From: Candidatus Spongiihabitans sp.
Lineage (GTDB): Bacteria > Pseudomonadota > Gammaproteobacteria > Arenicellales > Poriferihabitantaceae
Assembly (NCBI RefSeq): GCF_965247905.1
Contig: NZ_OZ252047.1
Location: 2,518,845-2,582,844, forward strand
Direction of reading: 5' to 3'
Length of the DNA: 64,000 bases
The stretch's first letter is position 1, and each line of letters opens with the position of its first letter. Below the pieces are notes generated by a model. It ran no database searches and was not told the DNA's origin. It was given only the letters and a program-made list of their open reading frames with translations. Position numbers and translations under genes: made by a program. Positions 3,868 through 63,466 of this stretch are shown here, one piece after another.

Positions 3868-5697
3868 CTATTCCGATGTTGGCTGAAAATGCTCAATAAT
3901 CAACTGCAACGATCGCCTGCCTCGAAATTCATTAACATCTAACTGATACACGGCATGTATTCGGTCTAATTGAGGCCTCGGCTGTCCCGGCTCGATTGCC
4001 CGAAATGCAATCCCTTCAAAGCGGCAAGTCCCATCAGCGGGTTGCAAGGTGAAACGCAAGTGATGCTCGCCAACCACTTTTTGCGCGGTCACGATAAACA
4101 CGCCGTCAAACAGCGGCGCCGGAAACCCCTGCCCCCAAGGCGCAGCCGCACGCAATTGTTCGGCATTGTCCAGGGTGATTTCGTTTTCCGGCAAATCGCC
4201 GTCGGTATAGATCGCGCCCGTTGCGTCGGCGTTGGCAAAATGCGCGGCGACATGATTGTGAAACGCCGCTTTGAACGCCACGAAATTTTTCTCGGCGATG
4301 GTCAACCCCGCCGCCATCGCATGACCGCCGAACTTTACGATGAGCCCGGCGTGCGCGGCTGAAATATTTTCCAGCAAATCTTTTATATGCAGCCCGGCGA
4401 CCGAGCGCGCCGAGCCGGTCAACTTGTCATCTACGGTATCCGCGAACGCAATCACCGGTTGGTTGGTTTTATCTTTTACCCGCGAGGCGACCAGCCCGAC
4501 TATTCCCTGATGCCAGTCGGGTTCGTATAAACAAAAGCCACTCAAGTTTGTCGCACGATCATTTTTATTTTGCTTAGCTTTATTTTTCTTGGCTTTATTT
4601 TGTTTTGCGGAATTGACGATGCCGCGAACTATCTTCATCGCCTGCGACTGCATCTTTTGCTCAAGCACTCGACGTTCAAGATTAATGTCGTTGAGCGTCT
4701 CGGCGTAGTCGCGCGCGGTATCGCGGTCGTCGGTCAACAAACATTCAATGCCGATGGAGATATCATCCAGCCGGCCGGCCGCATTCAATCTCGGCGCGAT
4801 AACGAAGCCAAGATCTGATGCGACCATATTGCGATAGTCGCGCGCGCTGACTTCCATTAAAGCGAGGATTCCCGGCCTGCATCTCCCGGCCTTGATTCGG
4901 GCGACGCCCTGCGCGACCAATATTCTGTTGTTGTAGTCCAATGGCACCATATCGGCAACCGTGCCCAACGCCACCAAATCCAGATACTCCGCTAGATTTG
5001 GGGCCGTCAGATGCATGTCCGCAAACCAGTTCGCCGCTTTTAATTTCGCGCGCAGCAATAACAGCAAATAGAACATCACGCCCACCCCGGCAAGCGCCTT
5101 GCTCGGAAAACCGCAGCCGGGCTGGTTGGGGTTTAAGATGGCGTCAGCATCGGGGAGTATTGGGCCGGCCAGATGATGATCGGTGATTATGACCGAGATA
5201 TTCCTTTGTTTCAGCACCGAAACCCCTGGCACGCTATTAATGCCATTGTCCACCGTAATAACCAGGTTGGGATTTTTTTGCACCGCGACTTCGGCAATTT
5301 CCGGCGATAAGCCGTAGCCAAACTCAAACCGATTGGGCACCAGGTAATCGATATTGTCCGCGCCCATCGCGCGCAAGCAAATCAGCCCCAGCGCCGTCGC
5401 AGTCGCACCATCGGTATCGTAGTCGCCAATGATTAAAATACGCTGTTGGCTGGTTAACGCCGCGAACAGCAATGCCGATGCCCGATCAGCATTTTTTAGC
5501 GTATCGGGCGGCAGCATCCGTGCCAGCGGGTAGGTCAACTCGGCCGGATCGGTTAGATTTCGGTTTTCAAATATGCGCTTCAGCAAGGGCGACAGCCTGG
5601 CGCCGGCCGCATCGACCGGCATGGTTTCTCGGTTGGAATCGGCCCGCTTGGCATCGCACCGCCTGCGGCAAATCTTTCTCATACCCTGCCAATCCAT
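3868..5697 (-). CDS. recJ: ssDNA exonuclease RecJ
   Basis: GDYDTDG, ITVDNG, TDHH (DHH), PRLNAAGRL, GGHAMAAG. True start uncertain. Confidence 0.95.
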   Translation of the reverse strand: MDWQGMRKICRRRCDAKRADSNRETMPVDAAGARLSPLLKRIFENRNLTDPAELTYPLARMLPPDTLKNADRASALLFAALTSQQRILIIGDYDTDGATATALGLICLRAMGADNIDYLVPNRFEFGYGLSPEIAEVAVQKNPNLVITVDNGINSVPGVSVLKQRNISVIITDHHLAGPILPDADAILNPNQPGCGFPSKALAGVGVMFYLLLLLRAKLKAANWFADMHLTAPNLAEYLDLVALGTVADMVPLDYNNRILVAQGVARIKAGRCRPGILALMEVSARDYRNMVASDLGFVIAPRLNAAGRLDDISIGIECLLTDDRDTARDYAETLNDINLERRVLEQKMQSQAMKIVRGIVNSAKQNKAKKNKAKQNKNDRATNLSGFCLYEPDWHQGIVGLVASRVKDKTNQPVIAFADTVDDKLTGSARSVAGLHIKDLLENISAAHAGLIVKFGGHAMAAGLTIAEKNFVAFKAAFHNHVAAHFANADATGAIYTDGDLPENEITLDNAEQLRAAAPWGQGFPAPLFDGVFIVTAQKVVGEHHLRFTLQPADGTCRFEGIAFRAIEPGQPRPQLDRIHAVYQLDVNEFRGRRSLQLIIEHFQPTSE

Positions 5698-5757
5698 TTA
5701 AATGCCAGGCCCATTTAAATACCAGCCCATTTAAATACCAGCCCATTTAAATACCAG
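5694..5757. repeat. Tandem repeat, 16 bp x4
   Basis: CCCATTTAAATACCAG at 5710, 5726 and 5742 plus a variant at 5694; lies between hom and recJ. Confidence 0.9.
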
Positions 5758-5804
5758 ATGTTGCCATTATCGATTTCATGCCCCGGTCAGGCCACTCAGG
5801 CCGA

Positions 5805-7691: not shown

Positions 7692-8441
7692 ATGAAACGA
7701 ATTTTTATCGCGCTCGCTTTTGTGGCCGTTGCGCTGGCAGTGGTCAAATTGGCGACCAGTCAATCTGAATCCATCACCGCTCAGGTCATAACCAAACCGC
7801 ATGACAGTGCGACTGATAGTGCGGCGGAAAAAAACACCGAGCACTCAGGGTTGGCAGTGGCGACTTTCGCCGGCGGCTGTTTTTGGTGCATTGAGTCCAC
7901 ATTCGAAAAACTGGACGGCGTGAGCGCGGCGGTGTCCGGCTATAGCGGCGGTCATACGGACAACCCAACCTACCGTGAAGTCGGGGGCGGAAGCACCGGG
8001 CATACCGAAGCTGTACAAATTTTCTACGACCCGAAAGTGGTGTCTTACGAAGCGTTGCTGCACCAATTCTGGAAAGACATCGATCCCACCGATGCCGACG
8101 GCCAGTTTGTCGATCGCGGCAGCGAATACCGGCCTGCAATTTTCTATCACAATGAGACCGAAAAGGAAATGGCGATAAAGTCGCGCGATGAGTTGGAGGC
8201 GAGCGGCCGCTATCGCAAGCCGATATCGATAGAAATCGTGCCCTTCGATAGGTTTTACGATGCCGAGGAGTACCATCAGGACTATTACAGGAAGAGCCCG
8301 TTGCGCTACAAGGTTTATCGTCACGGCTCGGGACGCGATCAATATCTTGAAAAAATTTGGGGCGACCAACTGCATCTTAAATACGGCGAAAAAACGTCTG
8401 CGGTCGGTCAACCCGCCGACATCGCGCGGCGGATTATCTGA
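7692..8441 (+). CDS. msrA: Exported methionine sulfoxide reductase MsrA
   Basis: AGGCFWC active site, GHTEAVQ, AEEYHQDYY, N-terminal signal peptide. Confidence 0.93.
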   Translation: MKRIFIALAFVAVALAVVKLATSQSESITAQVITKPHDSATDSAAEKNTEHSGLAVATFAGGCFWCIESTFEKLDGVSAAVSGYSGGHTDNPTYREVGGGSTGHTEAVQIFYDPKVVSYEALLHQFWKDIDPTDADGQFVDRGSEYRPAIFYHNETEKEMAIKSRDELEASGRYRKPISIEIVPFDRFYDAEEYHQDYYRKSPLRYKVYRHGSGRDQYLEKIWGDQLHLKYGEKTSAVGQPADIARRII

Positions 8442-8556
8442 GGTGAGGATTCAGCCTCGCCAAGCCATTGCCAAGATGGCAGAACTAAAGTCCCACTTCC
8501 GAGATGGGCATGATTGACGGAAGTGAGGCTTCAGCCTCGCCAAGCCATTGCAAATG
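8440..8556. repeat. REP-like inverted doublet plus a partial second copy between convergent msrA and rlmB
   Basis: 8440-8500 GAGGTGAGGATTCAGCCTCGC..GGCAGAACTAAAGTCCCACTTCC and 8519-8556 GGAAGTGAGGCTTCAGCCTCGCCAAGCCATTGCAAATG; same module as inside the MITE copies. Confidence 0.8.
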
Positions 8557-9620: not shown

Positions 9621-12041
9621 TTATCCGAATCCGCGGGGCTTGTTCTCGCCGATGTTTTTGTTTCGGGCTTGCCCAGATAATCCCCGGGTGCTACCCGAGG
9701 ATTTTCTATCCGGAGATGCGGACTGTGAAATTAAATCGAAATCAATTTTCGCTTCATTGAGATCAACCCGCGCCACGCGGATTCTTACCCGGTCTCCCAA
9801 ACGAAAACGCCGACCGCTGCGCTCGCCGACCAATTGATAGCGCGCGGGATCAAAATGGTAATAATCATCGCCAAGCCCGGTAACATGCACCAAGCCGTCC
9901 ACGAATATTTCGTTCAACTGAACGAATATGCCGAACTCTTTCACGCCGGAAATGATGCCCGCGAATTCCTGCCCGATTTTTTCCTGCATAAATTCCGCCT
10001 TCAGCCAGGCGATCACATCGCGGGTGGCATCGTCGGCGCGGCGCTCGGCAAACGAGCAATGCTCGCCAATTTGGCTCAGGTTGATTTCGGGGCTGATTTC
10101 AGGGCTGATTCCGGGGCTGATTTCGGCGGGCGAGACCTTGCGCGACTTGCCCGTGTGCGACTTGCCGTCATGTAAAATAGGGTGCAAAATCTGGTTAATT
10201 TGTCGGTGCACCACCAAGTCGCAATAGCGGCGAATCGGCGAAGTGAAGTGGCCGTAAATCGGCATGGCCAGCGCAAAATGACCGATTTGGTCGGTGCTAT
10301 ACACCGCCTGACTCAAACTGCGCAACAAGACGATCTGCACCAGCCTCGCCATGTCGGACGCCACGCTGGCGAGCAACTTGGCATAATCCTTGGCCACGGG
10401 TTGCGCGCCGCCGGTCAGGGTCAATCCCAGCACGCCAAGAAATTGCCGTAATTTATTCAGCGCGTCCCGGTCCGGCCCGTCGTGGTTGCGATAAATGGCG
10501 TGGTTGCCTTTGTGGATTTGCAAAAATTCCGCCGCGCAACCATTGGCGGCCAACATACATTCCTCTATCAACTTATGCGCATCATTTCTTTGCCGGGCGG
10601 ATATCCGGCGAATGCGTTTTTTATCATCAAATTCAATGACCGGTTCCGGAAACTCAAAGTCAATCGCGCCGCGCCTATCGCGTTTTTTCCGCAGACGCAG
10701 ACTCATTTTATAAAGATGATCAAGGTGCGGCGTCACCGCCGCCCAAGCCCGTCGCTGATGGCGATCTTTTTCAACAACAATGGCATTGACCAACGCATAG
10801 GTTAATCTGGCGCGCGAGCGCATGAGTGCGGGATAAAAATGAAACTTCGTCACCGCGCCATGCTGCGCGATTCGCATATCGCAAACCATGCAGTAACGAT
10901 CTTCGTCTGGCTTCAACGAGCAAATACCATTGGACAGATCTTCCGGCAGCATCGGCACCACCCGATTTGGAAAATACACCGAATTGCCGCGCACATAGGC
11001 TTCGCAATCCAGCGCGCTGCCGGGCTTGACATAGTGACTCACATCGGCGATGGCAACCACCAGCCGCCAGCCCGAAGCGCGCGGCTCGCAGTAAACCGCA
11101 TCGTCGAAATCCTGCGCGTCTTCGCCGTCAATCGTGACCAACGGCAGGTCGCGAAGGTCTTTGCGGGGTTGGTCGCGCGGTTGGTCGTGGTGTTGCTCGC
11201 CATTTTTTTTGCGGGCGGATTCTTCATGTTTTTTTTCCGCCGCGACGCTTTGCAACAGGCGCGCCATTTTTTTCAACTGCGCTTGCACCGCGTCGGGCCA
11301 CGCGGTCAGGACGCCGTGTTTGCGGATGGCGATCTCGGTTTCCATGCCCGGCGCTAAATCGCGACCCACAACTTCGATAATCTCGCCAACGGCATGCTTA
11401 TGCTCGATCGGATGCTGGCGTATTCGCGCGACCACAATATCTCCATTTTTTGCGCCATTGAAACGATTATCGGGAATGCTGATGTCGCGCGCAAAGCGCG
11501 GGTCGTCCGGCTCCACGAATCCGCTGCCGCCTTGCAGATGAAAATGCCCGACAATTTCACGCGCGCGCTCGCTCAGCACCTCCACAATCACCCCCTGTTT
11601 GCGTCCGCGACTGTCGATGCGTTTGGTTTTCGCCAGCACGCGATCGCCATGCAGCACTTTTCGCATTTGGTTGTGATGCAAATAAAGATCTTCGCCGCCT
11701 TGGTCAGGAATGACAAACCCGAACCCTTTCGCGTGACCGACCACCCTACCAACCACAATATCCATTTTTTCGGGCAGGCCGTAGCGGTTTTTGCGATCCA
11801 TCAATAGATAGCCATTTTTGCTCATTCGCTGCAATCGCCCGGCCAGGGCATTGACTCCTTCCGGACTTAAAATATTGAAGTGCGCGCAAATAGACTGCAG
11901 CGCAGCAGGCTGGTTTGCGCGAGCAAGATACTCAAGTATCTGCAATCTCGAGGCCACCGGCACGCCGCTGGAGTCGGCCGCTCGGTAACCCGCTGCTTGG
12001 TAACCTGATTTAGTGGCGTTGTGATCTGTTTTTTGTTTCAT
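9621..12041 (-). CDS. rnr: Ribonuclease R
   Basis: TIDGEDAQDFDDA, YGHFTSPIRRYCDL, cold-shock and S1 domains. Confidence 0.96.
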   Translation of the reverse strand: MKQKTDHNATKSGYQAAGYRAADSSGVPVASRLQILEYLARANQPAALQSICAHFNILSPEGVNALAGRLQRMSKNGYLLMDRKNRYGLPEKMDIVVGRVVGHAKGFGFVIPDQGGEDLYLHHNQMRKVLHGDRVLAKTKRIDSRGRKQGVIVEVLSERAREIVGHFHLQGGSGFVEPDDPRFARDISIPDNRFNGAKNGDIVVARIRQHPIEHKHAVGEIIEVVGRDLAPGMETEIAIRKHGVLTAWPDAVQAQLKKMARLLQSVAAEKKHEESARKKNGEQHHDQPRDQPRKDLRDLPLVTIDGEDAQDFDDAVYCEPRASGWRLVVAIADVSHYVKPGSALDCEAYVRGNSVYFPNRVVPMLPEDLSNGICSLKPDEDRYCMVCDMRIAQHGAVTKFHFYPALMRSRARLTYALVNAIVVEKDRHQRRAWAAVTPHLDHLYKMSLRLRKKRDRRGAIDFEFPEPVIEFDDKKRIRRISARQRNDAHKLIEECMLAANGCAAEFLQIHKGNHAIYRNHDGPDRDALNKLRQFLGVLGLTLTGGAQPVAKDYAKLLASVASDMARLVQIVLLRSLSQAVYSTDQIGHFALAMPIYGHFTSPIRRYCDLVVHRQINQILHPILHDGKSHTGKSRKVSPAEISPGISPEISPEINLSQIGEHCSFAERRADDATRDVIAWLKAEFMQEKIGQEFAGIISGVKEFGIFVQLNEIFVDGLVHVTGLGDDYYHFDPARYQLVGERSGRRFRLGDRVRIRVARVDLNEAKIDFDLISQSASPDRKSSGSTRGLSGQARNKNIGENKPRGFG
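9661..9703. repeat. Palindromic repeat remnant inside the rnr C-terminal codons
   Basis: Hairpin AATCCCCGGGT-GCT-ACCCGAGGATT; the minus strand also carries GGATTATCTGGGCAAGCCCGA, similar to 37575-37604. Confidence 0.5.
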
Positions 12042-12251
12042 TCCTTTTTGTTCCGGACTTGTCGGGCGGCACCATCACGGTAGCCATTAAGGTAGCCATC
12101 AAGGTAGTCATCAAGGTATCATGAGCAACGCGGATAATTTATAATCCCCGGCGCGGTCGGCCAGCATTCGCGGCAAGTCTTCATGCTTAGCGACTTCATG
12201 CTTGGCGACCATGGCCGACCACGACCCATCATAACAACATGAAATAACAAG

Positions 12252-13847
12252 ATGAAAATAGGTATCCCAAAAGAAATTCACGGCGATGAGTGTCGGGTTG
12301 CCTGCACACCGCAAGAAACCCAAAAAATAATGGCGCTCGGTTACGACGTGTTGGTCGAAAAAGATGCCGGACTAGCTTCGGGGCATGTTAATGAAGACTA
12401 CCAAGCCGCCGGCGCGTCAATCGTTGATGATACACCCGAACTATGGAAACAGGCGGATTTAATTTGCAAAGTCCGTCCGCCGGAACAACATCGCGCGCTT
12501 GGCGTTCATGAAGCCGACTGGCTGAGCGGCGGCAAGACGTTGATCAGTTTTTTCTGGCCCGCGCAAAACGCCGAGTTGCTCGCGCAAATTGCCGCGCACG
12601 GTGCGAGCGTGCTGGCCATGGACGCGGTGCCGCGCATATCGCGCGCGCAAAAAATGGACGCGTTGTCCTCGATGTCGCACATCGCCGGCTACCGCGCGGT
12701 CATTGAAGCCGGGCAGCACTTCGGCCGATTCTTCATCGGCCAGATCACCGCGGCCGGGAAGATTCCCGCGGCCAAGGTTTTGGTGATTGGCGCCGGCGTG
12801 GCCGGACTGTCCGCCATCGGCACGGCCGTGAATCTCGGCGCGATGGTGCGCGCATTTGACACGCGCCTGGAAGTCAAGGAGCAAATTGAAAGCATGAGCG
12901 CTGAGTTCCTTGAACTCGACTTCACCGAAGAAGGCGCGGGCACGGGCGGTTACGCCAAGGTAATGAGCGCTGAGTTTATCGCCGCCGAAATGGCGCTGTT
13001 TGCCGAGCAGGCGCGGGAAGTGGACATCATTATCACCACCGCATTAATCCCCGGCAAACCGGCGCCGAAATTAATCACCAAGGAGATGGTGGACTCCATG
13101 AAGCCGGGCAGCGTGATCGTCGATCTGGCCGCGGAACAAGGAGGAAACTGCGAGGGCACCGAAGCCGGGCGCGTGGTCAAGCAAAACGGCGTCAGCATTA
13201 TTGGCTTCACCGATTTGCTCAGTCGAATGGCGGCGCAATCCAGCCAACTTTATGCCGCGAATATCCGCCACTTGCTCAGCGATCTCACGCCCGAAAAAGA
13301 CGGCGTCGCCAATATCAACCTGGACGACGAAGTGATCAGGGCAACGACCGTGGTGCATAACGGAAAGATTACCTGGCCGCCCCCGGCCGCGGCGCCGAGC
13401 GTTGCCAGCGGTCGCGCAAGCGATGACATGGGCGATAAAATGAGCCATAAAAAACCGGCCGCCGTGACCGCGCCGGGCATTGCGGACACCCCCTCCGCCG
13501 GACATCGCGCGGCTAAGACCTGGCTCGGCGTCGCCATCGGCGCATTGGCGATTGTGGGTATGGGCGCGGTCGCGCCGCAGTCATTCATGAATCACTTCAT
13601 CGTGTTCGTGCTGGCCTGTTTCGTCGGCTGGCAGGTGGTCTGGAATGTGACCCCGGCGCTGCATACGCCGTTGATGAGCGTGACCAACGCCATCAGCGGC
13701 ATCATTGTCATCGGCGCGCTGTTGCAAATCGGATCGTCATCGCCGCTGGGAGCGCTGCTGGCAATGGCAGCGGTGGTCATTGCCTCGATAAATATTGCCG
13801 GCGGGTTTTGGGTCACGCAACGCATGTTGAACATGTTCAAAAAATAA
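12252..13847 (+). CDS. pntA: NAD(P) transhydrogenase alpha subunit
   Basis: [32 protein letters not shown]. Confidence 0.96.
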
Positions 13848-13860
13848 TCAGGCGTCATTC

Positions 13861-15315
13861 ATGACCAGCGGCATTACCCTTGGCGCCTACATCGTCGCCA
13901 GCATTTTCTTTATCCTCAGTCTGGGCGGATTAAGCGGTCAGGCAAGCGCGCAGCGCGGCAATCTTTATGGCATGGCCGGAATGGCGCTGGCAATCGCCGC
14001 AACGTTATGGGGCGATGTGGCGCATGATGATGGGGTACGGGGCTACGGCGTAATCGCCGCGGCCATGGCCGCAGGCGCGGTCATCGGCGGAATTCTGGCG
14101 CTGCGCGTGCGCATGACCGCGATGCCGGAACTGGTCGCGATGCTACACAGCCTGGTCGGGCTGGCGGCGGTGTTTGTCGGCTTCTCAACTTATCTGGGTG
14201 CCGATGTTGGCCATGCCGACGTTATTGCCATGGATGGCATGGTCGCGGGCGCAGGACGCGCAGGAGCGACCGCCAAGACCATCCTCGACATCGAAATTTA
14301 TTTGGGCGTTTTGATTGGCGCGGTAACCTTCACCGGCTCGGTCATTGCGTTCGGCAAACTCAAGGGCATCATCGGCAGCAAGCCGTTAATGCTGCCGGCG
14401 CGACACGGCATCAATCTGCTCATCTTAATCGCCTGCATCTACTTGGGATATGAATTTGTTCGCGCCGACAGCATCGCCGCCGGGCTGACGCCGCTGCTGA
14501 TCATGGCCGCGCTGGCATGCCTGTTTGGCATACACCTGGTCATGGCCATCGGCGGCGCCGACATGCCGGTGGTAATCTCAATGCTGAACAGTTACTCGGG
14601 CTGGGCCGCGGCCGCAACCGGGTTTATGCTGTCCAATGATTTGCTGATCATCACCGGCGCGCTGGTCGGCTCAAGCGGCGCCATACTCAGCTACATCATG
14701 TGCCGAGCGATGAATCGCTCTTTCATCTCCGTCATCATCGGCGGGTTTGGCGCGGCGCATTCCGGCGACAGCGGCGCGCTGGCAGCTCAGGGCGAAGTGG
14801 TGGCGATCAACGCCCACGAGACCGGCGAGTTATTGAGCAACATCGACTCGCTGGTCATCGTTCCGGGATACGGCATGGCGGTTGCCCATGCCCAGCACTT
14901 GGTTTCCGAGTTGACCCGGAAACTGGAGGAGCGCGGGGTCAAGGTCAGCTTTGCCATTCATCCGGTGGCCGGACGAATGCCGGGGCATATGAATGTGTTG
15001 CTCGCGGAAGCCAAAGTCCCGTATGACATCGTCTTTGAAATGGAGCACATCAACCGGCAACTGGCCGACACCAATGTTGTGCTGGTCATCGGCGCCAACG
15101 ATATTGTCAATCCCGCGGCCATCGACTCGCCGGATAGCCCGATCGCGGGGATGCCGGTTATCGAAGCGTGGAAGGCGCATCAAGTTGTCGTCTTGAAACG
15201 CAGCATGGCCAGCGGCTATGCCGGGGTTGAAAATCCATTGTTCTATAAGGAAAATACCCGAATGTTGTTTGGCGATGCCAAGCACAGCATCGAGCAGGTG
15301 CTGGCGGCGCTGTGA
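13861..15315 (+). CDS. pntB: NAD(P) transhydrogenase beta subunit
   Basis: [37 protein letters not shown]. Confidence 0.96.
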
Positions 15316-15321: not shown

Positions 15322-15418
15322 CACGGCGGTGACGGCGGTCGCGGGCGATGAAAAATGACGGCGGGGGAGTGACGGCGGGGGAGTGACGACGGTGGTGGCG
15401 GCGACGGCGTCGACGGAG
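15322..15418. repeat. Degenerate TGACGGCGG tandem repeats
   Basis: Several GACGGCGG(T/GGGAG) units between pntB and hisG. Confidence 0.7.
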
Positions 15419-16358: not shown

Positions 16359-16482
16359 TAATCACGGCATAACACTGCTGTATTATTCGGCACCACTCAA
16401 TACTATAAAGCAATACCACTATAAAGCAATACCGCAAAAATCAGACGCAAAACGTAGCCGTTGTGACCAACAACTTGCGCGT

Positions 16483-16584
16483 CTAATTAACTAGCCCGGA
16501 TTAATTAACCTGGATTAATTAACCTGGATTAATTAACCTGGATTAATTAACCTGGATTAACTGGCCCGGATTAATTAACCTGGA
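16483..16584. repeat. Higher-order tandem repeat, 14-bp TTAATTAACCTGGA
   Basis: 4 exact copies at 16501-16556, 1 at 16571-16584, plus 2 variant ...CCCGGA units. The last copy contains the LysM gene stop codon. Confidence 0.92.
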
Positions 16585-17099
16585 TTTTTCAGGTACTCTA
16601 TATCAGACGCCTCGATCGGCCCGACCGCCCAGGCGCCGCGCGTCCTGGCATGGTTGATTGCCGCATCTATTGCACTTTGCGTCGCGTCTCTCGGTATTGC
16701 CAATACTTGTCCCGGATAGATTAAGTCGGCGTCAATAATCTGGTCGAGATTGGCTTTGTAAATCAACGGCCACCTTTCCGGCACATTGTAAACCTCTTCT
16801 ATGCCGGCAATAGACCAAAGGTTGCTGCCGGCCACCACCGTCCAGTTGGTAAGTTGGTCGGCTACAGGTTCAACTTCTGCTACTACGGGGGCAGAGACTG
16901 CAGGGGTTATAGGGGTTGCAGGCGCAACAACTGCGGCGGCTGCGGGGGTGGCAACTGCTGTTGGCTCGCTTTTTGCGCTTATACAGCCAGCCACCAAAGT
17001 TGTAGCCGCCAAAATCAGGGTCAGCTTAAATGCTGAATTGATTTTCTCAGAATTGATTTTATTAGAGGTGTTTTGCATACCCGATATCTCTAGTTTCAT
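16575..17099 (-). CDS. LysM-domain lipoprotein
   Basis: Lipobox LVAGC, Ala/Pro linker, WTVVAGSNLWSIAG...WPLIYKAN...DADLIYPGQVLAIPR. Confidence 0.85.
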   Translation of the reverse strand: MKLEISGMQNTSNKINSEKINSAFKLTLILAATTLVAGCISAKSEPTAVATPAAAAVVAPATPITPAVSAPVVAEVEPVADQLTNWTVVAGSNLWSIAGIEEVYNVPERWPLIYKANLDQIIDADLIYPGQVLAIPRDATQSAIDAAINHARTRGAWAVGPIEASDIEYLKNPG

Positions 17100-18685: not shown

Positions 18686-18719
18686 GGTCTAATCTCAAGA
18701 TAATGTATAAGTCGCCTAC

Positions 18720-19023
18720 TGTCTGGGTTCACCACATATGAGACAAAATCAGGTCGCCAAGGCGGGTTGCCGATAATACGCCATCGGCGTCATTAAATCC
18801 AAACTATCGTGTGGTCGGCATGATTATAGGTCCACTGGTAATGGACCAGTTCCTGGTTGATCGCGGTCACCTTCAACGGCCCTCGGCAGTGAGGCTTCAG
18901 CCTCGCCAAGTCATTGCCAAGATGGCGGGACTAAAGTCCCGCTTCCGACGCCGTCGGCCTGACCTGCTTTAAGCGCACTAGCCGGGCCAAGTCAACAGTC
19001 TCTTATGTGTCTGAGCCCGAACA
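18720..19023 (-). mobile_element. MITE copy 1 (IS481-like derivative, 304 bp)
   Basis: Ends TGTCTGGGTTCACCACATATGAGAC...GTCTCTTATGTGTCTGAGCCCGAACA; flanked on both sides by CCTAC. Confidence 0.9.
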
Positions 19024-19039: not shown

Positions 19040-20410
<1,371 letters not shown>

Positions 20411-44751: not shown

Positions 44752-44796
44752 GTTTAGTTTAGTTTAGTTTAGTTTAGTTTAGTTTAGTTTAGTTTA
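44752..44796. repeat. Simple sequence repeat (GTTTA)9 upstream of recA
   Basis: Nine perfect pentamers, 26-70 bp upstream of the recA ATG. Confidence 0.95.
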
Positions 44797-44897
44797 TGTT
44801 GAGCAGACAACCCCGAATTATCCCACATGCTGTGATTTAGAACCAGCATCCGGCATAAATCAAGTCGTGAATTCGCTCTGAATTGGGCGCTAACGGC

Positions 44898-44944
44898 ATG
44901 CCATTTCTTCATGCCATTTCTTCATGCCATTTCTTCATGCCATT
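44898..44944. repeat. Tandem repeat, 13 bp x3.6, over the sixA stop
   Basis: ATGCCATTTCTTC x3 plus a partial copy; each unit junction repeats the TGA. Confidence 0.9.
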
Positions 44945-45465: not shown

Positions 45466-45570
45466 CAGTCGTTAAAGCCAAGTAGAATACGCGACCTATT
45501 TTAACCGATCTTGCTGCCATCAACATAACAAAAAAAACCCATGTCACAAAAAACCAGGTCATAAAAAACC

Positions 45571-48250: not shown

Positions 48251-48285
48251 GAGACAATAAATATGAGACAATAAATATGAGACAA
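48251..48285. repeat. Tandem repeat, 14 bp x2.5
   Basis: GAGACAATAAATAT repeated. Confidence 0.85.
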
Positions 48286-50767: not shown

Positions 50768-50788
50768 CGCTCAAATAGATGATTGTTA

Positions 50789-51376
50789 TTAGTCGTCATT
50801 CGGGGAATGTTCATCCACTTCCGTGTGCGACTTCCCTTCCATCTGCAGCACTCTATCCCGCAACGCGATACCGACAACACGAGTGATTTTTTCTATATCA
50901 ATATCTTCATCAAACGCAACCTGCGATATTTTATCAAACTGATCTTTATCCTTCGCCTCCAAATCATCCAATAATTTTTCCTTACAGAACAAGAAACACT
51001 GTTCCTGCACTTTATAGGCATTCATGCCTTGAGTATCACCATGCAGTTTGTCTGCATAGGCATCCACTACTTTCTCGGCATCTATTTTCTCGAAAAGTTC
51101 TTGACCATACTCAGATAATGTTACTGGGCTATCGATTTTTTCTATGGCACGGCCATGACGCATCACAATCACCCGATAAACTTCGTCCACCTTTTTGGTG
51201 AGTCCTTCAACGTTTTTAGTGAGTCCTTCAATGATTTTCTCGACCCCAGATAATCTGTTGTCGACCGTGGTTGTCCAAGTTGATATTTTCCAGACCACCC
51301 CAATAACGGCGATGACAACCGCAACCCAACCCCAAGAGGAAAGATTAAACGATTGCATTATGGCGTTTATATTCAT
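50789..51376 (-). CDS. Hypothetical protein (N-terminal TM, coiled coil)
   Basis: 195-aa ORF; hydrophobic WGWVAVVIAVIGVVW, EGLTKNVEGLTKKV repeat; family not recognised. Confidence 0.7.
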   Translation of the reverse strand: MNINAIMQSFNLSSWGWVAVVIAVIGVVWKISTWTTTVDNRLSGVEKIIEGLTKNVEGLTKKVDEVYRVIVMRHGRAIEKIDSPVTLSEYGQELFEKIDAEKVVDAYADKLHGDTQGMNAYKVQEQCFLFCKEKLLDDLEAKDKDQFDKISQVAFDEDIDIEKITRVVGIALRDRVLQMEGKSHTEVDEHSPNDD

Positions 51377-51428
51377 GCTGATTCTCCTTATCTGTTATGC
51401 GATATGCGCGCAGTATTGTAGCAAATTT

Positions 51429-53015
51429 TTATTCCGGTTCAAACCTTGCCTTCATCTGCTCGCGCGGCAGCCTTATATCAAATTTTTCCCGAATGCGCGC
51501 ATCCAGTTCATCGGAGATGTGCGTCGGGAAATGAGTTGCCAAAATTTCTTTGGTTTTTTCCCGCGCAACATCATTGACTGTTTTGGAGCCCAATTCCTTC
51601 CATTCCGCCGGGGTTAATCGGTTGCCCACATCAGGATAAACGTAATCGGATTCCATCCTCGATAAAGTGGCTTGGTGTCCAAGAAAATGCTCCGGGCCGT
51701 TTATGCAAACATCCTCAATGGCTTCCAGGGCAAGGTTTTCCGTATCCACTTCAACGCCGCGAACGCTGCGATTGATCGCGCCCAGCATATCATTATCGAT
51801 GGTCGCGCCCTCAAAACTAAAGCCGAGCAAACTGGCCTGCATCCCCACCGTTTCATACACCAAATTGGCGCCGCTATGGCCGGCAAGCGCTAGGGTATAG
51901 CCTTTTTCAAACCCGGACTGGGCATCGGGAATTTTGGAATCGGCCATGCCCGCGGCAATGCCGGTGGGCAAGTTCAAATAGCGGCCGACCTGGCCGCAAG
52001 CAGCCATCAAAATCGCCTGCTCGCCACTGCCGCCGCTCATGGCGCCGGTGCGTAAATCGGAAACAAACGGCCATGGGCCATAGATACAGGGATGTCCCGG
52101 AACAATCAGATTGGCATACGCCAATGCCGCCAAAGACTCCGCACATTCCTGCACCACCGCGCCAGCCAGCGACGCCGGACTGGTCGCGCCGGCCTGCCCG
52201 GCCGCGAGCAGCAATACCGGCATGCCGCCGCGAATGCATACCTCCATAACCCGGCACGCATCTTCGGCGAAACGCAATGGCGGCACCACAAAACAACACG
52301 ACACGCTGGCAAACGGGCGGGCGCGCCATTTATCTTCGCCGCCGGCGATTTCATGCAACAGTTTCAAGCCTTCCTCGGCGTGCTGCGGTTCCACATAACT
52401 TACCCCGCAGTGTTTGGTGGTGCCGGAAACCGAGGCATAGGTGGTATTCAAATCCATCGCTGCCGGCTGCTCGATATCGCGGGCAACCATGCAACGCTGG
52501 AAAAAATGAATATGCTCATGATGATCCACCAAGCGCGCCGCATCGTATAAATCCTGCAACGTGGATTCCCGATAAACGCCAGCTTTTCTGCCGGTGTATT
52601 GATCATGATGCTTCCATTCATCGACCACATGCACCGCCGCGCCTGCGGTGCCGAAATGTATTTTGTTTCCGCTGAGGTGCATATCATGTTCAGGAGACTG
52701 ACCGTACAGGGTAATATCGCGCGCGCAGGTTTCCATAGTCCATTCAATCAGTTCTCGCGGAAACAACAACCGACCTTCCGCGGTTAACTTCCCCCCAGCC
52801 TTGGTCACCATTTCAACGCACGATGGCAACTGCCGGGTAAAGCCGACATTCTCCAAAAGATCGAGCATAGCTTCATGCACCCGTTTTAAGTCAGCCTCAG
52901 TCAGCGGCATAAACCGCCCGCCGCTTTGCCCCGGTCGAACCGGCTTGTTCTCTTCGGCTAACGGTGCGGCGCGTAATGCCTTTCTCGCTTCTCTGCCGCC
53001 TGCTCTTCTAACCAT
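51429..53015 (-). CDS. MttB-superfamily (non-pyrrolysine) methyltransferase
   Basis: FGTAGAAV, GATSPASLAGAV, SDLRTGAMSGGSGE, DSKIPDAQSG; no internal TAG. Confidence 0.88.
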   Translation of the reverse strand: MVRRAGGREARKALRAAPLAEENKPVRPGQSGGRFMPLTEADLKRVHEAMLDLLENVGFTRQLPSCVEMVTKAGGKLTAEGRLLFPRELIEWTMETCARDITLYGQSPEHDMHLSGNKIHFGTAGAAVHVVDEWKHHDQYTGRKAGVYRESTLQDLYDAARLVDHHEHIHFFQRCMVARDIEQPAAMDLNTTYASVSGTTKHCGVSYVEPQHAEEGLKLLHEIAGGEDKWRARPFASVSCCFVVPPLRFAEDACRVMEVCIRGGMPVLLLAAGQAGATSPASLAGAVVQECAESLAALAYANLIVPGHPCIYGPWPFVSDLRTGAMSGGSGEQAILMAACGQVGRYLNLPTGIAAGMADSKIPDAQSGFEKGYTLALAGHSGANLVYETVGMQASLLGFSFEGATIDNDMLGAINRSVRGVEVDTENLALEAIEDVCINGPEHFLGHQATLSRMESDYVYPDVGNRLTPAEWKELGSKTVNDVAREKTKEILATHFPTHISDELDARIREKFDIRLPREQMKARFEPE

Positions 53016-54397: not shown

Positions 54398-54436
54398 AAT
54401 AATCATTGGGAATAATCATTGGGAATAATCATTGGG
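54398..54436. repeat. Tandem repeat, 13 bp x3, overlapping the tRNA-Gln 5' end
   Basis: AATAATCATTGGG x3; the last TGGG is the tRNA start. Confidence 0.9.
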
Positions 54437-56267: not shown

Positions 56268-56419
56268 GGGGTCAGAGTAGAAATTATTGGGGCTTTGGGC
56301 CAGGTTTTTCTGACTTCTAAAATCTTTCACTCCCAAACGCTATACAGCCATTTGTTGCATTTCTCAGGTCATCATGCAATGAATCTATTTGCTTAACAAA
56401 TAATTTCTACTCTGACCCC
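56268..56419. mobile_element. 152-bp element bounded by a perfect 21-bp inverted repeat
   Basis: GGGGTCAGAGTAGAAATTATT (56268-56288) and AATAATTTCTACTCTGACCCC (56399-56419); CTCTGACCCCTAATTGATTG is duplicated at 56410-56449. Confidence 0.6.
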
Positions 56420-56557
56420 TAATTGATTGCTCTGACCCCTAATTGATTGAAGCACGGGTGGTGGCGAGTTAAGTTGGTGACGCGCCTTCCAAATCTTTTT
56501 CCTTCAGGTGCTAAAGGCCGGAGCCCTTCGCCATGGAATAGAACTTGAAGGCAGTTA

Positions 56558-58360
56558 TCACGACATCTCCTCGACCCACTGCTTGATTTTGAGTGCCATT
56601 AGCCTGCGACGCTCGGCCAGGAAATCCTCGTAGTCGAATGAACCGCCGTCCAGCATATTATCGGGTATGCAATTGGCGGCCAGGTTGGCACGCATCTCTG
56701 CTTCATTAGTGATTCCACCATAATATTTCTTTCCGCCGTTGCACTGCTCGGCTAACGCGCGGAAGTATTCTTCGGGTGCCTTATCACCAATGGCGATGTT
56801 GATCTCGCTTTGAGCGATGACGAAGTTAGCGATCTGGTTATAACGCCCGCGATTTAATCCCTGGCGTTGCAGGTACTTGCGCGGAAAGACGTGGTGTTTG
56901 TCACCGCGGCTAATCAACAGATCGCGCACAGTAATGTCGGTTGAGAGAAAACCTTTATCCCCCAAATTCACTTGCGCTGCCTGGTAGGCGATAAAATACG
57001 GACTGATGGCCGAGGAAGTATCCATCTCCTGCAACAACATCCCGGTCCAAAAAGTGTCCGGTAACTCGTTCTCAATAACAGTCTCTGTGTAGGCTTTCAC
57101 GCCCCGGTCCGTAATCTGGCGGATGTCGACATCGAAAGTAGTTTCCGGACTACCAGAGTATCGTCCTGTCAGTACCGACATGGCATACCAGCGACGGACC
57201 ACATGCTCAATGTCATTGGCGGGCAGATTTTCTTTGCGTCCGCGCAGATAAAGAATGTAGGCAAAGTTGACGGCATTGCGACTGCGGATAAGCGCACTGG
57301 TGATGAACCCGGCCGACCGCAAAATCATAGTCAGGCGGTCAAAATGGGTCTTGCTCATAAAGGCATCAATGCCACTTTTAAGTTGGGCGAAAGACTTTTC
57401 GGTAATAGCCTCCTCGTATTCGCGAGTCTCAAAGTTGCGACCTGATAGCAGGGCAACAAGGTCCTGCAATTTGCCGCGGCCAAACTCGGATGTGAAGGCG
57501 ACGCGCAGCATATCGGTATAGGTCGGGTCATAGAGGTCGTCGTTGATGTCCTTGAGCCAGCGCATCTTCGGCAGGAATTCCGACTGCGCAAAATTTGGGT
57601 CGCCCTTCTCGATCTTGGAGAAATACTCTGGTGCTACGGCCAAGTGACAAAAATAATCAATAGCCTTGCGCAACAAGTTTCCACCGAATTTCTCGTCGAC
57701 CGCAATCTTCGACATGGCGAAGTCGGCTTGGGAAAGCACGGCACCAGCCGAGTTCACACGAATAAAGATTTCGGTAACGGTCTCAATATCGAGGTCCTCG
57801 GCCAATTCAATCAAGCCTACATGGTTATTGACTATCTTGCCTACCTTCTGCAATATTCTGCTGATGGTCTTGCGGTCTGTTGTCGGGTTCTGTGTGAAAT
57901 ACTGGTCGATCAATTCAATTAAGTCTGCATCGGGGCCGAAAAATACCGACACATCATCAATCCATGCGGCGTCCCTGGCGATGGCCGGGTTGTGCACTTC
58001 GAAACGCTCTTCGCCGGGATGAAAGGCAATACGAATGCGGACCGTCTCGTAGTCCTTGGTCAACACTTCGCGACCCAGCAATGATGCCATCAGCGCGGTT
58101 ACTCGTTGCTGACCATCAATCAAGACACGTTTGCCAGCAGAGTGTGATCCGTCCTTAAGTTTGACGGTCGGGTTACGCCAGGAGATGAGGTAGCCGACCG
58201 GATAGCCTTGATAGAGTGAGTCAAGCAAGTTGCGCACCTTGGTCGCATCCCAGACGAACGGGCGTTGAATCTCAGGTATGGCAATATCGCCGGATTTCAC
58301 CCAGGCGAGCAAAGTATCAACAGGGTGCGGGGTAACGGAATATCGTTGTGTAGCCATCAA
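56558..58360 (-). CDS. GmrSD-like (DUF262 + C-terminal HNH-like) type IV restriction protein
   Basis: [40 protein letters not shown], then DKHHVFP...NQIANF...N. Confidence 0.8.
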
Positions 58361-58421
58361 TTAAACTCCTGCTGAATGGAAAACATGCCGATTGGTATAA
58401 TCATAACATGAAATTTTTTAC

Positions 58422-58649
58422 TTGGCTTGTTGCCAAACAAAAAATAAGGTTCAAGATACTATAAAGGATGATTTCGGAAAGCCTTCAATAGATGGCTGTA
58501 CATGGTTTCATGATAGCGGAGAGTCATACTGGACAAAGGTTTTGTGGGATAAACCAATCGCCTACAGAGATGAAGTTATAACTAATCCATCTGGCTGGTT
58601 TTCTATGAAGATTCCGGCGGATGATAAAGCGTTTATTTTTTATTACTGA
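58422..58649 (+). CDS. Short hypothetical ORF or gene fragment
   Basis: 75-aa ORF in an AT-rich stretch next to the IS; no recognisable family. Confidence 0.25.
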   Translation: MACCQTKNKVQDTIKDDFGKPSIDGCTWFHDSGESYWTKVLWDKPIAYRDEVITNPSGWFSMKIPADDKAFIFYY

Positions 58650-58651
58650 AC

Positions 58652-59368
58652 TCAAATCTGCTTTATTGGTTGTGGACGGTGCAAACCGATTGTCGACATA
58701 TGACAAAAAAAATTTTGGGGCTGTCCTAGATAACTAACCCATTGTTTCAATTGGTTTAATTGAGACTTCGGGTCACTGTTGTTAAAACGCCACTCACACT
58801 CCTTCAAAAACAGCGGAAAATGACCCCTCGGAACCCCGTTAAACTTGCGTAATTGCCGCTTCGCCTGGCTCCAAAAATTCTCAATGCCATTGATGTGATT
58901 CTGCTCGTCGGCAAACATTTTGCTATGATTAATACGCAGATGCTTAAACTCAGATACATCCAGCACATTATAACCGCGAAATGAATCGGAATAAACCACG
59001 CTGTCCGGCTTCACCTTGCGCCGAATAATCGGCATCAGGGTTTTACTCCGAGCATCGGCTATGGGCACCGCACACACCCTGCCATCTCGTTTAAGCAAGC
59101 CAAATACCGGTGCCTTGCCACTTGCCCCGCGACCGCGCTTGCCTTTGCGTTTTCCACCAAAATAACTTTCATCCACCTCAATCTCGCCGGCCATCAACCC
59201 GCCATTGTCATCGTTGCGATAAATCAGATCACGAAGACGGCGAAAATAATAACTGGCAGTCGTCTTGTTAATACCCACTAACGACGCGGCCGTTCTGGCT
59301 GTCGCACCCGCCACAAATAACTCAATTAATCGATTTTGTTTATACTGGCTTAAACGACTCTTTCTCAT
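58652..59368 (-). CDS. IS1016-type DDE transposase (reads through the right TIR)
   Basis: MRKSRLSQYKQ, EVDESYFGG, VYSDSFRGY, HINGIENFW. Confidence 0.9.
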   Translation of the reverse strand: MRKSRLSQYKQNRLIELFVAGATARTAASLVGINKTTASYYFRRLRDLIYRNDDNGGLMAGEIEVDESYFGGKRKGKRGRGASGKAPVFGLLKRDGRVCAVPIADARSKTLMPIIRRKVKPDSVVYSDSFRGYNVLDVSEFKHLRINHSKMFADEQNHINGIENFWSQAKRQLRKFNGVPRGHFPLFLKECEWRFNNSDPKSQLNQLKQWVSYLGQPQNFFCHMSTIGLHRPQPIKQI

Positions 59369-61287: not shown

Positions 61288-61482
61288 CATCCAGACAAGA
61301 CGGGCAAGACCATATCTCTAAGTTACGAAAAAATAGAATCGGCGCTGGATGAATACCTCGAACCGGCGCTTTCAACCCGGCGCACCTCCGAAGCGCCGGC
61401 TCGCGGTTTAACCACGCTCCCTCTGAAGCAACAAAAGTTTGCGCTGCATTGGACCGACGTTATCCGTAAGTCCAACGCCGAA

Positions 61483-63426
61483 ATGGCTTATCAATTTGTA
61501 AGCCATGTTCCATTTGCCTTAAAGCTTATGAATCTGGACGGAACACATCAGTGGCTGTTGCACGCTATGGATATTTACGACAAGGAAGGGTTGTATCCCG
61601 GTAGTGCGGCCCTTGGAAACATCGAGCAATTCGCCAGAGAATATCGATTAAGCCACATCACTGTAACCCTGGAACAGGTTCGCGGCGTCCTCGAAACCAT
61701 CCTCTGCGGCTTGAGCGGGCGAAACTTAAAAATAGAAGCAGGCAACCGTATTTTCACCGATACCGAAACCTTGTATCTGCCGGTTGCGATAAACCGATTT
61801 AACGAGCGCGAAAAAAACTATCAACTGTACAAGGTTACGGCAGTTCACGTATGGGCACAAACCTGGTTTGGCACCTTCAAGCGACCAACGCCGGATGCGC
61901 CGCACTTGAGCGAGATCATAGGGAATTTTTCCGATAGCGGGCGCGCGCTCAAACTGTTTAACCTGTTGGAGACTTTTCGATTGAACGCCTGCCTGCATCG
62001 CGAACTTCCGGGACTTGGCCGGGAAATGCTCGAACTGCATACCCCGCCGCCGGTGCATGATGCAACCTGGGAAAAGATGATACGCACTCTGGAAGCGTCG
62101 CAAGCGACGGTAATTGAAACATTGGCGGCAACAACGCAACTTTATCATCGGCAACTTGCCTGGCCCGACGCTTTTTTATATCAGGGTGGCTTTAACCTGA
62201 ATGCCGCTGAACTGACTATCGACCAGCGCATCGAACTCGAAAAATCGCAATTGCAAGCGGCGTTGAACGCGATCGTCGAAGCGCAACGCGATGCCGCCGA
62301 TGACGATGACGACGCGGCGCGCGCGCAAAATGTGGACGCGAATGTGGAAGCGAACCAAGATGAAAACGGCGCGGCGCAACTGACGCTGGACGGCGAGCCG
62401 TTGTTCCTGCCGCCCGACACAGGCCGCCTGTTGTCGTCCCTGCTTCAGGATTTCGATAATATTCCGGAACACTGGCTGGTGCCGGCCGGCGATGGAGATG
62501 ATGCGCAAAACAAAAATAAAGCCGAGGATGCGTGGCCAGACGATCGCCGCGAACCAGGCGCATTCTTATACGATGAATGGGATTTCCGCCGGCAAGCCTA
62601 TCGAAAAAACTGGTGCGTGTTGCGGGAAATGACGACCGCTCCCATTTACGATGATTTTCCGGAAAACACCTTGCAGCGCTATGTTCATCTGGTTGGCGAT
62701 ATTAGAAAGCATTTTGAAGTGTTGCGTGGAGAAGACAAAATACTTAAAGCGCAACCCATCGGCGATAACATCGACCTGGACGCATTGGTCACCGCGCACA
62801 CCGATATGCAGACCGGTGTTGAGATGACCGATCGCCTGTATACGCATCGGCGAAAGCAGGAGCGTGATCTGGCGGTTATCTTTATGGTGGATGTCAGCGG
62901 ATCGACCAAAGGCTGGATCAATGATGCTGAGCGGGAAAGCCTGATCTTGCTCTGTCAGGCACTGGAGATACTGGGTGATCAATATGCAATTTACGGATTC
63001 TCAGGCATGACCCGTAATCGTTGCGAGGTCTATAAAATCAAGACCTTTGAACAGAATTATGATAAAGACGTGCGCGCCCGCATCAGTGGACTTCGACCGC
63101 AGGACTATACCCGCATGGGCGTAACCATTCGCCACCTGACCGGTATTCTCAACCAGGTTGAGGCAAAAACCCGAATCCTGATCACCCTGTCCGATGGCAA
63201 GCCGGACGATTATGACGGCTACCGCGGCGATTACGGCATAGAGGACACGCGACAAGCCTTGCTGGAGGCGCGCCATACTGGCGTGCATCCGTTCTGCATC
63301 ACCATTGATACCGAAGCCAGCGACTACCTGCCGCACATGTATGGCCATGCGAGTTTTGTGGTGGTCGATGAAGTGCGCAAACTGCCGTTAAAGGTGGCGG
63401 ACATTTACCGTCGGCTGACTACATGA
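61483..63426 (+). CDS. NorD/CbbO-type vWA-domain adaptor (frame open from 61288)
   Basis: YDEWDF, GDNIDLDA, MIDAS-like MVDVSGST, DYTRMG, LSDGKPDDYD, PFCITID. Confidence 0.85.
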   Translation: MAYQFVSHVPFALKLMNLDGTHQWLLHAMDIYDKEGLYPGSAALGNIEQFAREYRLSHITVTLEQVRGVLETILCGLSGRNLKIEAGNRIFTDTETLYLPVAINRFNEREKNYQLYKVTAVHVWAQTWFGTFKRPTPDAPHLSEIIGNFSDSGRALKLFNLLETFRLNACLHRELPGLGREMLELHTPPPVHDATWEKMIRTLEASQATVIETLAATTQLYHRQLAWPDAFLYQGGFNLNAAELTIDQRIELEKSQLQAALNAIVEAQRDAADDDDDAARAQNVDANVEANQDENGAAQLTLDGEPLFLPPDTGRLLSSLLQDFDNIPEHWLVPAGDGDDAQNKNKAEDAWPDDRREPGAFLYDEWDFRRQAYRKNWCVLREMTTAPIYDDFPENTLQRYVHLVGDIRKHFEVLRGEDKILKAQPIGDNIDLDALVTAHTDMQTGVEMTDRLYTHRRKQERDLAVIFMVDVSGSTKGWINDAERESLILLCQALEILGDQYAIYGFSGMTRNRCEVYKIKTFEQNYDKDVRARISGLRPQDYTRMGVTIRHLTGILNQVEAKTRILITLSDGKPDDYDGYRGDYGIEDTRQALLEARHTGVHPFCITIDTEASDYLPHMYGHASFVVVDEVRKLPLKVADIYRRLTT

Positions 63427-63466
63427 GAATGTAAAGCATGAGAATGTAAAGCATGAGAATGCAAAG
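63422..63466. repeat. Tandem repeat, 15 bp x3, over the vWA gene stop
   Basis: CATGAGAATG(T/C)AAAG x3. Confidence 0.9.

Follow-up and report, generated by a model that had tools for sequence, protein, structure and literature searches.

The 64-kb window analysed here (the whole stretch of DNA under study) is dense in short tandem arrays. It is part of the chromosome of a sponge symbiont that oxidises sulfur, a species of Candidatus Spongiihabitans that has not been cultured. The arrays are real and, in evolutionary terms, recent: each duplicates, head to tail, sequence from its own place in the chromosome. They are of a kind already known (slippage-type tandem duplication, akin to variable-number tandem repeats (VNTRs)) and are unusual only in their density. 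We consider it probable that they arise by microhomology-mediated tandem duplication (MTD) followed by in-register slippage, at a rate elevated in one species, and that selection then filters them; we infer both the slippage mechanism and the elevated rate. Our literature searches found no account of such tandem duplications in Spongiihabitans or other sponge symbionts.

The chromosomal housekeeping genes in the window are recJ, hom, rnr, pntAB, hisG, gabD, purA, hflKC, glnA, argC, ampG, pyrE, glnB, csrA, lysC, alaS, recX, recA, sixA, prs, rplY, pth, ychF and hemH. GlnA is 93% identical to that of L006 (NZ_OZ250154.1), a metagenome-assembled genome (MAG) labelled Candidatus Spongiihabitans sp., and 86–89% identical to those of further Spongiihabitans and Arenicellales MAGs obtained from sponges. 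For AlaS, identity to the L083 protein (GCA_001543005.1) is 90%; L083 is the cold-seep sponge symbiont ‘Gsub’ (PMC5361782), called Ca. Spongiihabitans thiooxidans in PMC12426252. AlaS and Hom proteins identical to those of the window are encoded by an ENA metagenome contig, ERZ26167708 ctg196927_450x_l (1.095 Mb), whose DNA is 98.98% identical over the stretch designated L081 (151 substitutions), with roughly equal identity over a second stretch, L085 (220 mismatches in 17.2 kb). Identical proteins combined with approximately 99% DNA identity mark this contig as an independent assembly of a conspecific strain, which we compared with the window over 39.8 kb (L081 and L085). Look-ups of exactly matching proteins led to this contig through AlaS and Hom and gave nothing for GlnA, YchF and PurA, the strain of the window being absent from the collection searched. 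Sister sequences L006 (approximately 80–88% nucleotide identity), L082 and L083 (an Illumina assembly) were aligned at orthologous sites.

Array density against controls

Tandem Repeats Finder (TRF), run with a minimum score of 30, returned 63 rows that reduce to 60 non-overlapping arrays, 42 of which score at least 40 and 29 at least 50. Thirty dinucleotide-preserving shuffles of the window gave 11.4 ± 3.5 arrays scoring at least 30 and 0.2 ± 0.5 scoring at least 50, and the csrA–alaS–recX–recA region of Escherichia coli K-12 (50 kb) holds one array at a score of at least 40 and none at 50 or above. The estimate of more than 15 unrelated tandem units in 64 kb, given in a preliminary description of this DNA, is thus borne out by the 29 high-scoring arrays.

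A scan for exact tandem repeats of at least two copies, which is independent of TRF thresholds, found 16 with periods of 10–24 bp. Other gammaproteobacterial loci yielded 23 such repeats in 1.4 Mb (approximately 1 per 64 kb), which places the window at about 15 times their density. Periods in the window peak at 13–14 bp, and the same scan found none at period 8 or 9. Shorter periods of 4, 5, 6 and 7 bp occur 181, 53, 25 and 2 times, against 195, 60, 37 and 5.4 expected per 64 kb, which is background, and homopolymers of at least 7 nt are ordinary (3.1 per 10 kb in the window and 2.7 elsewhere). The excess is therefore specific to units of 10–25 bp.

The density of arrays scoring at least 50 is 4.38 per 10 kb in the window and 4.0 in the conspecific strain (L081), compared with 1.8 in L083, 0.9 in both L006 and L082, 0.5 in L001 and a median of 0 (mean 0.48) across 80 glnA loci of relatives; in L002, TRF found no array scoring at least 50. 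Around the same genes, the sister species thus have array densities 2.5–9 times lower, and the density of the conspecific strain extends 4 kb past the window edge. High density is a property of the lineage, and it exceeds that of shuffled and related sequences alike, where equal density would have spoken against the duplication-generating process that was first proposed. Some unrelated GC-rich MAGs reach 2–3 arrays per 10 kb with similar periods; the phenomenon is not unique in kind, and the window is the extreme of our sample. These densities point to a species-level rise in either the rate of events or their retention. Should the rest of the genome prove equally dense, few bacterial genomes would be richer in tandem repeats, and the species would be a natural case in which to ask how the rate and the size range of short duplications, the raw material of tandem-repeat evolution, are determined in bacteria.

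Arrays vary between strains and are filtered by selection

Over the 39.8 kb compared, the window and the conspecific strain differ by 371 substitutions and 15 indels, 9 of which are whole-unit changes in arrays: 12 bp at 2918, 16 bp at 5709, 14 bp at 15376, 42 bp at 16498, 24 bp at 36004, 12 bp at 38672, 13 bp at 40403, 5 bp at 44752 and 26 bp at 44897. Units have been both gained and lost, and approximately one-third of the compared arrays differ between strains that are only about 1–1.3% diverged. The remaining indels are five single-base changes and one of 80 bp at 8443; the latter, considered as a candidate micro-duplication, proved to be a fragment of a dispersed element resembling a miniature inverted-repeat transposable element (MITE), described below.

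Alignments with L006, L082 and L083 show a single copy or fewer copies at most orthologous sites (16402, 20354/20375, 22778, 26307, 27154, 29279, 34402, 38978, 43454, 43629, 45533, 48251 and 51192). Older arrays, at 28874, 38911, 40397 and 44992 and at the LysM stop codon, are common to relatives, which also carry arrays of their own elsewhere, such as an 11 bp × 3.6 array near recX and a 9 bp × 5.7 array in the csrA tail of L083. A motif search across array units found none in common, as expected from the earlier description of each unit as local sequence rather than a shared element, and no 4-mer was enriched beyond CATG. We considered CATG as a shared motif or nuclease site (7 of 26 units, 2.3 expected, uncorrected P = 0.0045) and rejected it, as it fails correction for 136 tests; its nominal enrichment is explained by the overlap of arrays with start codons. 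An Rfam scan of the window returned three tRNAs and a PYLIS_3 match, and nothing on the arrays. The lack of a common motif, together with the separate arrays of relatives, indicates a process that copies whatever sequence is present and acts across the whole clade.

Selection has left a clear mark on the reading frame. All 16 arrays lying wholly within open reading frames (ORFs) have periods that are multiples of three (6, 12, 15 or 21 bp), compared with 10 of the 26 arrays that are not within genes (Fisher P = 4e-5). Coding DNA, which makes up 87% of the window, has 0.29 arrays per kb; non-coding DNA has 3.1, an 11-fold difference. Selection therefore filters the arrays: within genes, only duplications of a multiple of three would survive, in tolerant loops and tails, and in intergenic DNA any period may survive, so that arrays would pile up there.

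The frame rule also bears on the possibility that the arrays are a sequencing, amplification or assembly artefact, a concern raised by related assemblies, for which ultra-low-input HiFi libraries were amplified by PCR before assembly with metaMDBG (PMC12988363). We regard this as extremely unlikely, because only selection on real proteins yields such a pattern. The same arrays recur in the independent assembly of the conspecific strain, which served as a proxy for the raw reads in which the preliminary description would have had their presence checked; Ca. S. thiooxidans has homologous arrays both in its Illumina assembly and in an independent Logan assembly of its reads; and the copies in many arrays have diverged by point substitutions.

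Many arrays overlap start or stop codons, ribosome-binding sites or a tRNA end because the intergenic regions are short, and one intact copy of each overlapped signal would remain. Start or stop codons are touched by 9 of the 26 arrays outside genes, against 9.3 expected under random non-coding placement (P = 0.62; the test is approximate, with gene starts taken from the longest ORFs), and we therefore reject a special affinity for gene boundaries. The bias towards boundaries reported at first does not exceed chance, and the caveat that accompanied it, that purifying selection tolerates duplications there, is the part that stands. This result also weighs against adaptive contingency loci, in which copy number at ribosome-binding sites, start codons or promoters would tune or switch neighbouring genes. 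Arrays do overlap several start codons and the ribosome-binding site of glnA, another is found upstream of recA, and several of these differ between strains, but their placement at gene ends is that of random non-coding placement, the affected genes are housekeeping genes of every kind, the units are mutually unrelated and, unlike at classical phase-variable loci, the frame is never shifted inside genes. We consider this explanation very unlikely.

Arrays could alternatively have accumulated at an ordinary input rate through weak selection, in a host-restricted symbiont of small effective population, or through slow array deletion. The clade has undergone genome reduction and repair-gene loss (PMC5361782), and sister sponge symbionts also lie above the typical median of 0. 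Yet no gene contains an out-of-frame array in a window that is mostly coding, sister species of the same lifestyle fall well short of its density, perfect and hence young arrays are also in excess, and arrays gain and lose units between strains. Weak selection alone is a poor explanation, and we think it unlikely that accumulation of this sort is the answer.

Birth and growth of the arrays

The multi-copy arrays, the whole-unit polymorphism, the partial copies at array ends and the lack of a common motif together suggest replication misalignment. In the first step, a segment of approximately 10–25 bp would be copied head to tail during replication, by strand misalignment or MTD, possibly aided by faulty processing of lagging-strand flaps. 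From two copies onwards, in-register slippage would add or remove whole units, which would allow arrays to reach 3–7 copies and to differ between strains.

A signature of MTD is the partial terminal copy, or ‘arm’. Among the 16 exact arrays, 7 have no extra matching bases at the end, 3 have 1 nt and 6 have 5–10 nt, compared with a chance expectation of 1.6% for a partial terminal copy of at least 3 nt; some of the 5–10-nt partial copies are full extra copies interrupted by point mutation. In the conspecific strain, two sites show an arm–spacer–arm arrangement with 9-nt arms, TGACGGCGG-GGGAG-TGACGGCGG at 15376 and CATGCCATT-TCTT-CATGCCATT at 44897, which is the one-copy state of the MTD model and also the state to which a duplication reverts (PMC8639346; 10.64898/2026.02.28.708716). 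The MTD route has been found in every bacterium tested, with arms of at least 3 nt in approximately 70% of new events, and 40–50% of the perfect duplications in bacterial reference genomes bear arms, the rest being attributed to arm decay (10.64898/2026.02.28.708716). The armless share here, 44%, is near the 50–60% of those reference genomes (10.64898/2026.02.28.708716). Our arm figures fit that reference-genome pattern and allow no finer discrimination.

The arrays otherwise resemble MTDs (Wei et al., 10.64898/2026.02.28.708716; PMC8639346) in being local head-to-tail duplications of approximately 10–25 bp with partial-copy arms, in occurring in one-, two- and three-copy states among close strains, in the preferential retention of in-frame events in genes and in their armless share. 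They differ in a density far above that of the other bacterial loci examined, in polarised births that show little microhomology and in a narrow period spectrum (10–16 bp, with nothing at 8–9 bp).

Three observations weigh against MTD followed by slippage. The few births that an outgroup allowed us to polarise, at 16402, 20354, 38978, 43454, 43629, 48251 and 51192, show only 0–3 nt of flanking microhomology, short of what one would expect had microhomology driven every event, although the outgroups are 10–15% diverged and arms may have decayed. The periods of exact repeats start abruptly at 10 bp, with none at 8–9 bp (approximately P = 0.02), a lower limit that simple slippage does not predict. 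Finally, the window encodes RecA, RecX and RecJ, all apparently intact, with an in-frame repeat in recJ.

The first two of these observations, with the 10 exact arrays that have 0 or 1 nt of extra sequence and the concentration of periods at 10–16 bp, would suit a microhomology-independent birth of the first two copies, with slippage acting only afterwards. Such a birth might begin when a nuclease, an integrase or a transposase nicks the two strands 10–16 bp apart and the ends are filled in and joined; alternatively, an Okazaki flap of roughly primer size might be ligated directly, before it is processed. Against this, the armless fraction is close to that reported in the MTD preprint for old duplications in ordinary bacteria, where the loss of arms is attributed to decay; periods of 20–25 bp also occur; the units have no motif in common; the mobile elements of the window make short target duplications (approximately 5 bp for the MITE); and bacterial insertion sequences are not known to leave a target duplication in place when they excise. 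Staggered nicking and end-joining fill-in, which the preliminary description had listed as candidate processes, do not fit arrays of 3–7 copies, whole-unit changes between strains, 5–10-nt partial copies and the spread of periods. As target-site duplications, the arrays would likewise be anomalous, as they reach 7.2 copies, span periods of 10–25 bp, gain and lose whole units and have no resident element with a duplication of the same length. We judge a microhomology-independent birth doubtful. A link to mobile elements was rejected on similar grounds: the MITE duplicates approximately 5 bp, and the sole transposase in the window belongs to the IS1595 family, whose elements make 8-bp target duplications. 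Transposon footprints are thus an unlikely source of the arrays.

With MTD and slippage as the preferred route, the elevated density calls for a separate cause. MutS is not known to act on loops of 10–16 nt, or on any of at least 10 nt, and chiefly restrains slippage between imperfect copies. The signature of mismatch-repair deficiency is missing from the window, where periods of 4–7 bp and homopolymers of at least 7 nt are at background and the strains differ by five 1-bp as against nine whole-unit indels. The sister species Ca. S. thiooxidans is reported to lack MutL–MutS (PMC5361782), which makes the defective mismatch repair first suggested for this DNA a plausible background, but an insufficient one, given that this sister has only 1.8 arrays per 10 kb and that short repeats and homopolymers are not in excess.

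Nucleases offer a further candidate. In E. coli, such events are kept down by the Pol I 5′ nuclease and by the single-strand exonucleases RecJ, ExoI, ExoVII and ExoX, and polA 5′-nuclease mutants have a duplication mutator phenotype. Yeast that lacks the flap nuclease Rad27 gains more of these duplications (10.64898/2026.02.28.708716), and the rad27 mutant resembles our window in that short tandem duplications become commoner throughout its genome while other classes of mutation do not. It differs in that its duplications are flanked by direct repeats of 3–12 bp, which are only partly seen here. Tentatively, and with low expectation, we raise the idea of a natural ‘duplication mutator’, in which this lineage would have altered the maturation of its lagging strands or the working of its single-strand exonucleases, with microhomology-poor duplications genome-wide as the result. 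Candidates would be the Pol I 5′ nuclease, RNase H and the ExoI/ExoVII/RecJ set, in a background perhaps already without MutS and MutL, and each duplication would span approximately one to one-and-a-half turns of the helix, much the length of a primer or flap. If this were true, scaling from the window would give well over a thousand arrays in the genome of approximately 2.8 Mb.

Two further known systems are similar in part. The VNTR or minisatellite-like loci used for multiple-locus VNTR analysis (MLVA), for example in Yersinia pestis, Burkholderia pseudomallei and Mycobacterium (MIRU), have short units that are mostly intergenic or in frame and that vary between strains by whole units; here, copy numbers are low (2–7), loci per kb are very numerous and the change per array is modest. 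The TAACTGA heptamers of Beggiatoaceae and cyanobacteria (PMC4679880) are likewise short direct repeats, abundant between genes in uncultured gammaproteobacteria that oxidise sulfur, but they repeat one motif genome-wide, whereas each array here has its own local unit.

The arrays along the window and neighbouring features

Nearly all the gene-boundary duplications listed in the preliminary description are present where it placed them (at the LysM, sixA, 647-aa protein, AsmA, ampG, ferredoxin, methyltransferase, glnA and tRNA-Gln sites), the exception being the recJ start codon. The array there, in the recJ–hom intergenic region (5694–5757, 16 bp × 3.9; three copies in the conspecific strain), has an ATG in each unit. 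RecJ is called at 584 aa in the conspecific strain and its family match begins at approximately residue 26 of the long ORF, so the array probably lies upstream of the true start, and what it repeats would be intergenic sequence with an ATG in it. Gene callers are misled when start codons, stop codons and ribosome-binding sites are duplicated, as at the recJ and ampG starts.

Several other arrays lie at or near gene starts. Two adjacent ones (15 bp × 2.1 and 13 bp × 2.1) cover the pntA start and its upstream region (12179–12257), and two abutting ones (14 bp × 2.1 and 15 bp × 2.3) lie directly upstream of purA (20354–20410), where L006 has neither, leaving a 28-bp gap. A perfect 11 bp × 3.0 array triplicates the glnA ribosome-binding site (GAGG) and spacer (24430–24462). 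At the start codon of an AsmA-family gene, a 10 bp × 1.9 array (29279–29297; single copy in L006) yields an out-of-frame upstream ATG. The ampG start (36004–36051; 24 bp shorter in the conspecific strain) carries an in-frame array giving the N-terminus MSTNLSTNMSTN, in which a 12-bp unit was doubled, diverged by one base and was then doubled again as a 24-bp pair. The ferredoxin start codon lies in a 10 bp × 2.5 array (37927–37951) with CCATG arms and an ATCGG spacer, and the start codon of a methyltransferase gene in a 15 bp × 3.3 array (45533–45582) that is 33 bp shorter in L083. The tRNA-Gln gene (starting at 54433) is met at its 5′ end by a perfect 13 bp × 3.0 array (54398–54436), the unit of which ends in the first 4 nt of the tRNA. 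Upstream of recA, 26–70 nt from its start, stands (GTTTA)9 (44752–44796), with eight copies in the conspecific strain and approximately two in sister species; its unit is shorter but varies like the longer arrays, and it could shift the spacing of the recA promoter or leader.

At gene ends, the stop codon of the LysM protein gene is overlapped by the polymorphic 14 bp × 7.2 array (16486–16586), which is three units shorter in the conspecific strain and has approximately two copies in L006. The sixA stop codon (TGA) spans a unit junction in a perfect, polymorphic 13 bp × 3.7 array (44897–44944), reduced to 1.7 copies (a 9-nt repeat with a 4-nt spacer) in the conspecific strain. Between the convergent stops of yggT and ampG (34402–34458) are units of 12–13 bp (25 bp × 2.2), with L082 36 bp shorter. 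Two overlapping 15-bp arrays, × 3.1 (63422–63467) and × 2.1, begin at the stop codon of the gene for the 647-aa protein and end shortly before hemH starts (63422–63489).

Other intergenic arrays lie between rnr and pntA (12072–12118, 12 bp × 3.9); between pntB and hisG (15356–15392, 14 bp × 2.6), where the array is polymorphic, with 1.6 copies (a 9-nt direct repeat and a 5-nt spacer) in the conspecific strain, and is absent in L006; at 16402–16433 (perfect, 16 bp × 2.0; one shorter copy in L006); between csrA and lysC (38911–39005), where a 13 bp × 3.1 array common to L082 and L083 adjoins a 12 bp × 2.3 array that is single-copy in both; between lysC and alaS (40397–40432, 13 bp × 2.8), polymorphic with one more unit in the conspecific strain and homologous to an array in L083; and at 48251–48285 (14 bp × 2.5, or three copies with the last diverged; single copy in L083). 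A perfect 20 bp × 2.0 array (56410–56449) stands alongside an insertion between rplY and pth, spanning 56558–59368, that consists of a GmrSD-type restriction endonuclease gene (56558–58360, minus strand) and the IS1595-family transposase gene (58652–59368, minus strand).

Inside genes, the repeated peptides that were first noted in RecJ, RNase R, HflK and CsrA are all present. They are encoded in frame in recJ (4564–4602, 15 bp × 2.6, AKQNKAKKNKAKQNK; also in the conspecific L085 stretch), in the RNase R gene (10082–10126, 12 bp × 3.8, ISPGISPEISPEI), in hflK (22778–22812, 12 bp × 2.9, NQRGNQRGNQR; 24 bp longer than in L006) and in the C-terminal extension of csrA (38600–38701, minus strand), where 21 bp × 2.1 and 12 bp × 4.7 arrays encode GNQSDDA × 2 and (GHDN)n and the conspecific strain has one 12-bp unit fewer. 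In-frame repeats thereby lengthen these conserved proteins. CsrA has 112 aa (38538–38876, minus strand), compared with 61 aa in E. coli, and its C-terminal extra half is acidic and consists almost entirely of in-frame repeats; sister species have different repeat units there, which makes the csrA tail a recurrent hotspot. The C-terminal end of RNase R is altered by a 1-bp indel at 9635, giving 806 aa in the window and 820 aa in the conspecific assembly.

Further in-frame arrays occur in AsmA-family coding sequence (26307–26355, 15 bp × 3.3, fewer copies in L006; and 27154–27193, 15 bp × 2.7, one unit fewer in L006), in recX (43454–43486, 12 bp × 2.8, or three units in another phase; 24 bp longer than in L082 and L083), near the recX start (43629–43651, 12 bp × 1.9; single copy in L082 and L083), in sixA (44992–45015, 12 bp × 2.0, FSGQFSGA; two diverged copies already in L083) and in the gene of a 195-aa protein (51192–51238, 21 bp × 2.2, EGLTKNVEGLTKKV; single copy in L083). 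Together, the arrays are ready-made strain-typing markers for this uncultured sponge symbiont.

The dispersed intergenic element of approximately 305 bp is present in four copies that are 93–97% alike (18717–19023 and 24563–24867 on the plus strand; 32668–32970 and 37625–37897 on the minus strand), with fragments at 8437–8554. Its terminal inverted repeats of approximately 25 nt (GTCCGGGTTCACCACATATGAGAC...) and its flanking duplications of approximately 5 bp (ATTAC, CCTAC) give it the appearance of a MITE, and 96 bp of it are also present in the sister genome L006.

Between the window and the L081 stretch, 105 of the 151 substitutions fall within approximately 3 kb (about 48400–51400), in a DAO/GCV_T-family gene and its neighbours, a clustering that suggests import by recombination. 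In L082, an N6/N4 DNA methyltransferase gene and a gene of no known function (12831–14913), absent from the window, are inserted between alaS and lysC. The PYLIS_3 match (the pyrrolysine insertion element of mttB; 51848–51947, minus strand) lies inside an uninterrupted MttB-family ORF of 528 aa (51429–53015), which presumably encodes a non-pyrrolysine MttB homologue.

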